Under the pieces are notes generated by a model. The model was given only the letters and a program-made list of their open reading frames with translations. It was not told where the DNA came from and made no database searches. DNA of 64,000 bases from Escherichia coli (lineage in GTDB: Bacteria > Pseudomonadota > Gammaproteobacteria > Enterobacterales > Enterobacteriaceae), in the NCBI RefSeq assembly GCF_045037415.1, contig NZ_CP173438.1; one strand, written 5' to 3'. Below are positions 58,420-60,049 of the stretch, piece by piece (position 1 is the stretch's first letter; each line of letters opens with the position of its first letter). The position numbers and the translations under genes were made by a program.

Positions 58420-60049
58420 TTATTCTTGCTCCAGCATCGCATTCACCCACGCGTCGAGGTTGGCGAAGGTCGGTTTGGACGCCAGATGCAGCAGCTTACG
58501 CCCGGCGTCCACCGCCAGCAGCGTCGGTTTGCCGCCTGCCTGCGCCACCAGCACAGTGCGCACGCATTCCAGCAAAGAATGTTCCGCCCGCGCCTGCTGT
58601 TCCATGGCGTTGGCTAGCGGGTCCATCAGGCAGTAGCAGATAAACACGCCTAAAAACGTCCCCACCAGAGCCGCCGCCACTTTCAGGCCAATCAGAGCGA
58701 TAGATCCATCAATCGACTGCATGGTGATGATGATGCCCAGCACCGCCGCGCAAATACCAAATCCCGGCATCGCTTCGGCGGTACGTTGCAGCGAGCGCGA
58801 CGGCGTTAACAGGGACTCTTCCGCGGTGTCCAGTTCCTGATCGAGAATGCCTTCCAGCTCATGGGCGTCGATTTTACCCATCGCCATCAGGCGAAAGTTA
58901 TCAGCAATAAAGGTCACCAGCCGCTTCTGGGTTAACACCAGCGGGTATTTCTGGAAAATGGTGCTCTCTTCCGGCTGCTCAATATGCTGATCCAACATCC
59001 GCAGACCGCCGTTTTGCACCATTTCGAGCAACTCATACAGGCACATTAATAGCTGACGCTGAAACTCCGGCCCGAGCTGTTTTTTACTGATCACGCCTTT
59101 AATTTGATGGGCAATCTCTTTCAGCACATGTTTCGGGTTACCAATAATCATCGCCCCGAAACCGGCACCCAAAATAATGATCATTTCCGCCGGTTGCCAG
59201 ATAGCCACTAATTGCCCGCCCGCTTCAAAATAACCGCCAAATACGCAGCCGAGCACCACCAGTAAACCTAATATTTTTTGGGTGATGCTGCCAACTTACT
59301 GATTTAGTGTATGATGGTGTTTTTGAGGTGCTCCAGTGGCTTCTGTTTCTATCAGCTGTCCCTCCTGTTCAGCTACTGACGGGGTGGTGCGTAACGGCAA
59401 AAGCACCGCCGGACATCAGCGCTATCTCTGCTCTCACTGCCGTAAAACATGGCAACTGCAGTTCACTTACACCGCTTCTCAACCCGGTACGCACCAGAAA
59501 ATCATTGATATGGCCATGAATGGCGTTGGATGCCGGGCAACAGCCCGCATTATGGGCGTTGGCCTCAACACGATTTTACGTCACTTAAAAAACTCAGGCC
59601 GCAGTCGGTAACCTCGCGCATACAGCCGGGCAGTGACGTCATCGTCTGCGCGGAAATGGACGAACAGTGGGGCTATGTCGCGCCAGCGCTGGCTGTTTTA
59701 CGCGTATGACAGTCTCCGGAAGACGGTTGTTGCGCACGTATTCGGTGAACGCACTATGGCGACGCTGGGGCGTCTTATGAGCCTGCTGTCACCCTTTGAC
59801 GTGGTGATATGGATGACGGATGGCTGGCCGCTGTATGAATCCCGCCTGAAGGGAAAGCTGCACGTAATCAGCAAGCGATATACGCAGCGAATTGAGCGGC
59901 ATAACCTGAATCTGAGGCAGCACCTGGCACGGCTGGGACGGAAGTCGCTGTCGTTCTCAAAATCGGTGGAGCTGCATGACAAAGTCATCGGGCATTATCT
60001 GAACATAAAACACTATCAATAAGTTGGAGTCATTACCTATTTTTTGCAT
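58420..60049 (-). pseudogene. lafT: Lateral-flagellar stator LafT (MotA-like), interrupted by IS1 after codon 4
   Basis: ATG at 60049-60047 encodes MQKI, then IS1 (59281-60037), then the ORF resumes ...LGLLVVLGCVFGGYFEAGG; MotA-like TM helices. Confidence 0.7.
59281..60037 (+). mobile_element. IS1 copy (757 bp) with an 11-bp internal deletion in insB; inserted in lafT
   Basis: IS1 inverted repeats; flanking 9-bp direct duplication tattttttg (59272-59280 and 60038-60046); compared with the copy at 43087-43854 it lacks gggctaaatcg after ...ggctatgtcg. Confidence 0.9.

Follow-up and report, generated by a model that had tools for sequence, protein, structure and literature searches.

The insertion sequence IS1 bounds composite transposons such as Tn9, in which its two copies are direct, and Tn1681, in which they are inverted; IS1 likewise flanks the aerobactin region of ColV plasmids. 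The IS1 transposase InsAB' moves otherwise immobile IS1 copies and mini-IS1 constructs in trans, about 25-fold less than in cis, and raised transposase levels were needed for such movement to be seen clearly (PMC12903888). We analysed a 64,000-nucleotide (nt) stretch of DNA from an Escherichia coli genome of sequence type 131, ST131 (contig NZ_CP173438.1 of assembly GCF_045037415.1; the whole stretch is referred to as the window), in which a 757-base-pair (bp) IS1 copy (59281-60037, plus strand) interrupts lafT, a gene of the Flag-2 lateral-flagella cluster, and a 768-bp copy (43087-43854, minus strand) interrupts hsdS of a type I restriction-modification system. The 757-bp element, here termed IS1-delta11, is most likely non-autonomous and was probably mobilised in trans, because its ends are intact and the same 757-bp element occurs with perfect target duplications at at least ten sites.

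We aligned the two copies base by base after reverse-complementing the 768-bp copy. The first-pass annotation, which was made from the sequence of the window, had described the copy in lafT as lacking 11 bp, and the alignment indeed contained a single 11-bp gap at IS1 nt 398-408. The placement of the gap is ambiguous by 3 nt with TCG on both sides, and GGGCTAAATCG is one valid spelling of the missing sequence. The gap is not the sole difference, contrary to that description, as we also found two substitutions, G444T (Arg to Ser in InsB) and G486T (synonymous). The rest of the element is identical to the intact copy, both terminal inverted repeats included, and the two copies are 99.7% identical. 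Full-length IS1 has an imperfect tandem pair of 11-mers at nt 387-409 (window 59675-59680), GGGGCTATGTC followed by GGGGCTAAATC, and the deletion removes the second unit, GGGGCTAAATC. The element retains the hallmarks of the IS1 family, namely imperfect terminal repeats of ~23 bp (GGTGATGCTGCCAACTTACTGAT and GGTAATGACTCCAACTTATTGAT, both ends identical to those of the intact copy), insA with the A6C frameshift site, and a target duplication within the 8-9 bp range. Its insA is intact and encodes 91 amino acids (aa) with the Pfam domains Zn_ribbon_InsA and HTH_Tnp_IS1. Translation after the normal -1 frameshift, in contrast to the 232-aa InsAB' of the intact copy with all three domains (DDE domain at residues 102-232), gave a 124-aa InsAB' with a premature stop, the deletion lying 85 nt past the frameshift site. 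The Pfam search of this 124-aa product found the zinc-ribbon and helix-turn-helix domains of InsA and no match to DDE_Tnp_IS1, which bears out the earlier statement that the loss inside insB frameshifts the transposase. The deletion places the remainder of insB in the insA frame as an orphan 129-aa open reading frame (ORF), which matches DDE_Tnp_IS1 at profile positions 9-131 and has no DNA-binding domain. The NCBI Prokaryotic Genome Annotation Pipeline (PGAP) labels the element 'IS1 family transposase, frameshifted'. The complete InsAB' with DDE_Tnp_IS1 that characterises an autonomous IS1 is thus missing, and the ends for transposase binding are intact. Judged from these sequence features, the 757-bp element appears to be a non-autonomous deletion derivative of IS1, incapable of supplying its own transposase.

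The 757-bp copy is flanked by a 9-bp duplication, TATTTTTTG, and the 768-bp copy by an 8-bp duplication, GAAGGTTA, each of which we read on both sides of its element. Strain 18044 (NZ_AP022326.1), which is related to ST131, has both target sequences as single copies and is IS1-free at either site. Because the duplications match and both sites are empty in strain 18044, both copies in the window are simple insertions. The assignment of a matching duplication to each copy in the first-pass annotation therefore survived re-inspection, except that 8 bp, and not 9 bp, are duplicated at the intact copy. The 757-bp copy splits lafT after codon 4 (ATG CAA AAA ATA), and the rejoined pieces encode 287 aa. 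In genomes with this insertion, PGAP still calls an 'intact' 288-aa MotA (WP_029700697.1) from an ATC start located 6 nt inside the left end of IS1, which we read in strain R3 at the equivalent of window 59281-59286. This call is almost certainly an annotation artefact that masks the disruption of lafT.

We decided to trace the defective form through 5,426 complete RefSeq E. coli genomes, a set that does not include the genome of the window, with a 40-bp probe across the deletion junction, built so that full-length copies cannot seed a match. The junction was found at 414 places in 266 genomes; 135 of these places are chromosomal and 279 plasmid-borne, and a single genome has as many as 9. The lafT insertion itself is common to about 55 complete genomes at 100% identity. 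Those that can be placed from the literature belong to ST131 clade C2 with F31/36:A4:B1 plasmids, and the relatives p4A, FDAARGOS_1265, SCAID, Ecol_AZ146 and ARM42 are all assigned to clade C2 in this way. Among the plasmids of PLSDB, 219 contain the junction (201 from E. coli, 10 from Klebsiella, 6 from Salmonella and 1 from Shigella), most of them conjugative IncF plasmids. Plasmid pS4-78 carries a copy identical to the element in the window over 757 of 757 positions, and its host, strain S4, also has the lafT insertion. The variant is present on both the chromosome and a plasmid in at least six genomes (S4, the O39:H21 strain Res13-Lact-PEB08-01, SUISSEKPC3NDM5, EC45, PK8566 and 126096). 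Five of the seven plasmids that we read share the same right junction, at which the element adjoins a UvrD-like helicase gene and an ATP-dependent nuclease gene. A sixth plasmid (L028) has the same downstream genes with a different junction base, and pFT130-2 has another context. The right junction is conserved on IncF plasmids of E. coli, Klebsiella and Salmonella; the left neighbour is variable (iutA, sitA, sitD or another IS1), and the plasmid copies have no target duplication. The plasmid copy therefore looks like an old resident that has undergone IS1-mediated rearrangements on one side. The gene pair that follows the defective IS1 on IncF plasmids encodes the UvrD-like helicase WP_000361402.1 and the ATP-dependent nuclease/AAA ATPase WP_001128474.1, a pairing that resembles a Gabija-type phage-defence module and is a candidate for one. 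The literature that we searched contained no description of a 757-bp or 11-bp-deleted IS1, which is not proof that the form is undescribed.

Outside lafT, we read 14 chromosomal copies and one more at a later stage. Counting lafT, the 757-bp element lies between perfect duplications of 8-9 bp at ten different places on chromosomes. The nine sites besides lafT are located in a GmrSD gene, espX1, rhs-yibA, yoaB-yoaC, ssuA, upstream of zur, in an ABC ATPase gene of another ST131 genome (MB1159), in yjfZ and at ydhS/ydhR. Four other chromosomal copies that we read lack duplications. The same defective element thus occurs at unrelated sites, each time with a duplication of its own, as is characteristic of a non-autonomous element. 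Potential helpers are at hand, with an intact IS1 in the window and 3-11 IS1 matches per chromosome in relatives. Together with the intact ends, these duplications make the suggestion of the first-pass annotation, that the defective copy can be mobilised only in trans, a reasonable reading of the sequence. According to this reading, the element would have had its 757-bp length before it entered lafT, and its source would have been the identical copy carried by the lineage's IncF plasmid, with the transposase presumably coming from an intact IS1 in the same cell. The insertion would have created the 9-bp duplication after codon 4 of lafT, followed by fixation in the ST131 group (clade C2 where checked). 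As a separate observation, additional chromosomal 757-bp copies occur within the ST131 group that has the lafT insertion: the one in the ABC ATPase gene of MB1159 has a fresh 9-bp duplication and the one near papX in p4A is without any. In this group, spread or rearrangement of the defective element seems to have continued. We also noticed that espX1 is an apparent hot spot for IS1, as 38 genomes have IS1 together with both espX1 flanks, in several isoforms and with many multi-piece matches; laboratory B strains have IS1 near espX1 too, at lower coverage.

The deletion could alternatively have arisen in place, by slippage that removed the second unit of the tandem GGGGCTATGTC and GGGGCTAAATC from a full-length IS1 in lafT, in which case the match to the plasmid copy would be coincidental. 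The missing sequence is exactly one unit of an imperfect tandem repeat and thus a plausible slippage site, and the reciprocal deletion, in which unit 1 is lost, exists at 24 places in 19 genomes, among them the pAA plasmids of O104:H4 outbreak strains. Because the reciprocal product exists, slippage at the tandem 11-mer has happened more than once. Moreover, a 768-bp sister copy at espX1 shares the private substitution A262T with the 757-bp copies at that site. However, about 96% of the deletion copies carry T444, at a distance of 36 nt (about 320 of the 334 junction-positive records, with the deletion found together with G444 in 12 records), although IS1 copies more often have G444 (in at least 7,179 of the 9,169 records with IS1). 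The tie between the deletion and T444 argues for one origin of the deletion rather than recurrent slippage, as far as linkage in the sequences can tell. The reciprocal product is also 17 times rarer (24 versus 414 places) despite its longer microhomology (7 bp versus 3 bp), and the lineage's own plasmid has a copy identical at 757 of 757 positions. From the T444 linkage and the rarity of the reciprocal product, the allele would mostly spread by descent, either through transposition of the defective element or through gene conversion from it. On account of the T444 linkage, we gave less weight to the idea that the 757-bp form comes mainly from recurrent slippage, and slippage in place at lafT appears improbable. 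An assembly or polishing artefact in the window can practically be dismissed, even though IS copies are classic sites of repeat collapse and the relative ARM42, assembled with Unicycler alone at low long-read depth, shows the other state. More than 50 complete assemblies, made independently in many laboratories, have the identical 757-bp sequence at lafT, and the junction recurs at all the places counted above, which also answers a reservation attached to the first-pass annotation.

Gene conversion is the main rival explanation. In this scenario, a full-length autonomous IS1 entered lafT and recombination with the defective copy on the plasmid then overwrote its centre; the remaining chromosomal 757-bp copies would have formed likewise. 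Several observations fit it and weigh against movement of a ready-made 757-bp unit. ARM42 (NZ_OY019088.1) has a 768-bp, otherwise identical IS1 at the exact lafT site (1 versus 52 genomes listed), and A1.S1.160 has a 768-bp IS1, likewise without any other difference, at the espX1 site (1 versus 6), the sister copy with A262T mentioned above. These 768-bp copies fit post-insertion deletion or conversion as well as later repair or mis-assembly. The lafT copy of strain R3 differs solely at the polymorphic nt 444, where it has G instead of T; it resembles a short conversion patch, which suggests short-patch gene conversion between IS1 copies at lafT and makes conversion plausible at this very site. 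The 757-bp copies are found on slightly different backgrounds (A262T, C258T and a four-change patch in L017), and plasmid and chromosomal copies often reside in one cell. Mobilisation in trans also faces the difficulty that none was detected for the non-consensus IS1 copies of K-12 at native transposase levels (PMC12903888). For ARM42, a mis-resolved collapsed repeat is a plausible source of the 768-bp state, since its assembly was made by Unicycler only, with low long-read depth and a linear plasmid record. The first 100 kb of the ARM42 plasmid contained no 757-type junction, in a record that is linear and incomplete and in which the region beside the expected site is cut by IS26. Despite these points, transposition is favoured over conversion because the 757-bp form is in the large majority at both countable sites (52 to 1 and 6 to 1), and because these genomes have more full-length donors (3-36 IS1 matches per chromosome) than the one defective donor, so that conversion should remove the deletion more often than spread it. 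Conversion would also require a prior independent full-length insertion at each of the at least ten sites. We consider this scenario unlikely. Very improbable is residual autonomy, by which the transposase would be rebuilt through a second recoding event at the deletion or through association of the 124-aa N-terminal product with the product of the 129-aa C-terminal ORF. Spread to at least ten sites would agree with it, as would the location of the C-terminal DDE part in an open frame with GTG and ATG starts of its own. However, the deletion junction has no recoding signal, the split falls inside the catalytic domain just past the first acidic motif, and every genome examined has full-length IS1 copies capable of acting as helpers. 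We know of no precedent for such rebuilding.

Trans mobilisation of an element that was already defective thus stays our preferred reading. The IS1 repressor InsA may still be produced from the 757-bp element, as may a truncated protein that has only DNA-binding domains. If these proteins are expressed, the effect of both would be to inhibit IS1, not to drive it. A more far-reaching proposal, which we regard as rather doubtful, is that IS1-delta11 constitutes a persistent non-autonomous IS1 lineage with a reservoir site on IncF plasmids, which repeatedly colonises chromosomes at natural transposase levels despite the cis preference of the transposase, and which may be tolerated or favoured as InsA and the DNA-binding-only InsAB' damp IS1.

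The two IS1 copies of the window lie in opposite orientation, as had been annotated, 15,426 bp apart. A repeat search returned inverted arms of 403 nt (100% identity) and 371 nt (99%), and the homology between the pair comprises 397 bp of perfect and about 360 bp of near-perfect sequence. Strain 18044 is collinear with window 44286-59280 at 99.993% identity. Because the gene order is the same as in this strain, which has neither insertion, no IS1-mediated inversion or deletion has occurred in this assembly, in agreement with the first-pass annotation. The bracketed genes, mapped from strain 18044, are an ash-family gene, a gene for a 156-aa ORF, an integrase fragment, thrW, proA, proB, phoE, crl, frsA, gpt, pepD, prfH, an rtcB-family gene, yafP, dinB, lafU and motA/lafT. 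The earlier list matches this annotation, but its description as core genes was too broad: about 2.2 kb of the bracketed DNA (window 43855-46086) is the remainder of a genomic island at thrW together with thrW itself, and the Flag-2 cluster, of which lafU and lafT are part, is accessory. On structural grounds, as the first-pass annotation proposed, the 15.4-kb segment could be a reasonable substrate for inversion, which would be RecA-dependent. A predicted IS1-IS1 inversion junction was not covered over at least 80% of its length by any of the 5,426 genomes, a result that is uninformative on the frequency of inversion because no database genome carries both IS1 copies. As both outer ends of the pair are right terminal repeats, the arrangement is like a composite transposon, and by analogy transposase acting on the outer ends could move the whole unit. 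In an IS1 composite transposon that had moved as a unit, one duplication would flank the whole; here each copy has a different duplication of its own, and no match exists between the outer flanks.

The island that holds the intact IS1 is marked at its ends by two duplicates. At 11,589 bp upstream of thrW are a partial copy of its 3' end (63 nt, 94% identical) and one of an integrase 3' fragment (92 nt, 75%) (window 34252-34466 and 45841-46086). The island contains an integrase pseudogene, AbiEi/AbiEii, hsdR/M/S, the ash-family gene and the 156-aa ORF; AbiEii is split by ISEc52 in strain 18044 and unsplit in the window. We rejected an identification of this 11.6-kb island with M27PP1 of clade ST131 C1-M27, which differs in size, repeat and site, and the five relatives named above are C2. 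M27PP1 measures 11,894 bp, and its 7-bp repeat, CCGTTCT, lies elsewhere (PMC5088012). The hsdS insertion of the window was found in none of the 5,426 complete genomes, and several hundred records have an uninterrupted hsdM-hsdS, a number estimated from the position of such rows in a spread ranking. As judged against these genomes, the intact IS1 entered hsdS later and only in the window's own strain. IS1 is present in the hsdS of strain 18044 too, 440 bp beyond the window's insertion point; this copy belongs to a different isoform (93% identical), and its 9-bp duplication corresponds to window 44286-44294. An insertion common to the two strains was rejected on the different isoform, the distance of 440 bp and the empty window site in strain 18044; the hsdS of the thrW island was struck by IS1 twice independently. 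Each of the two insertions would be expected to eliminate restriction as well as modification by the system.

Table. Positions of the two IS1 copies, the genes they interrupt and associated features in the window
Feature	Position	Strand	Basis or remark
Defective IS1 (IS1-delta11), 757 bp, left to right inverted repeat	59281..60037	+	Alignment to the 768-bp copy; same element on plasmid pS4-78 and at other chromosomal sites
Left inverted repeat (IRL) GGTGATGCTGCCAACTTACTGAT, intact	59281..59303	+	Same as in intact copy
Right inverted repeat (IRR), ending ...AAGTTGGAGTCATTACC, intact	60015..60037	+	Same as in intact copy
insA, 91 aa, GTG start, TAA stop, intact	59336..59611	+	Pfam Zn_ribbon_InsA, HTH_Tnp_IS1
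Programmed -1 frameshift motif TTAAAAAAC (A6C), intact	59585..59593	+	Sequence read
Residual insB' frame after the -1 shift, ending early to give the 124-aa InsAB'	59589..59709	+	Translation; no DDE_Tnp_IS1
Orphan 129-aa ORF, shifted into the insA frame, with most of the DDE domain	59633..60022	+	Translation, Pfam; annotated by PGAP in some genomes
11-bp deletion junction, between G and TCG	59677..59680	+	Alignment
Left TATTTTTTG duplication	59272..59280		Present once in strain 18044
Right TATTTTTTG duplication	60038..60046		Present once in strain 18044
lafT (Flag-2 MotA homologue), first four codons	60038..60049	-	Annotation mapped from strain 18044
lafT, rest of gene	58420..59280	-	Annotation mapped from strain 18044; rejoined ORF
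Segment between the IS1 copies, not inverted	43855..59280		Collinear with strain 18044
tRNA-Thr (CGT), thrW, attachment site of the island with the intact IS1	46011..46086	-	Partial duplicate at 34404-34466
Intact IS1, 768 bp, 232-aa InsAB' with three domains	43087..43854	-	Alignment, translation, Pfam
Left GAAGGTTA duplication	43079..43086		Present once in strain 18044
Right GAAGGTTA duplication	43855..43862		Present once in strain 18044
hsdS, 5' part (specificity subunit of a type I restriction-modification system)	42810..43086	+	Annotation of strain 18044 and empty-site genomes; rejoined ORF
hsdS, 3' part	43863..44602	+	Rejoined ORF

For the window itself, a pseudogenised IS that disables one Flag-2 gene is of little consequence; the Flag-2 cluster was not expressed in ST131 under laboratory conditions (PMC4637896). 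The original observation was correct and describes an ordinary mobile-element scar, to which our analysis adds an apparently single lineage of defective IS1; about 5% of complete E. coli genomes carry it, and fresh-looking insertions recur. If our preferred reading is true, this would be natural trans mobilisation of an IS whose transposase counts as strongly cis-acting. The 757-bp form is a ready-made natural tracer for the traffic of IS elements from plasmid to chromosome, and the lafT insertion is a possible stable marker of an ST131 group (clade C2 where it can be placed). The locus is also a warning for assembly and annotation, as some assemblies have 768 bp where their relatives have 757 bp and an 'intact' motA call starts inside an IS1 end.

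Compared with IS1 itself, in the IS1A/IS1R-type isoforms of E. coli and R plasmids, IS1-delta11 has the same terminal repeats, insA, A6C -1 frameshift site and 8-9 bp duplication. It differs in being 757 bp instead of 768 bp long, with InsAB' cut before the DDE domain, so that the ends and the repressor gene are kept and the transposase is lost. Like the non-consensus copies IS1B, IS1C, IS1D and IS1F of K-12, which are immobile alone and are moved by InsAB' in trans (PMC12903888), it would depend on a helper; those copies have scattered substitutions and intact frames, in contrast to the defined frameshifting deletion of IS1-delta11. The element is similar to MITEs (miniature transposable elements with inverted repeats) and to the mini-IS1 constructs (PMC12903888) in its intact ends, the lack of a working transposase, multiple duplication-flanked copies and autonomous relatives in the same cells. 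Unlike these, it is nearly full length, having lost 11 bp, it still encodes InsA, and it resides mainly at one fixed position on IncF plasmids and not as many copies dispersed over chromosomes. Finally, the pair in the window resembles Tn9, Tn1681 and the aerobactin region of ColV plasmids in that a DNA segment is bracketed by two IS1 copies, and the likeness to the ColV region extends to the plasmid copy of the defective element, which lies just downstream of iutA in several plasmids. In contrast to Tn9 and Tn1681, the pair consists of two independent chromosomal insertions, each with its own duplication, and there is no sign of past movement of the 16.9-kb unit.

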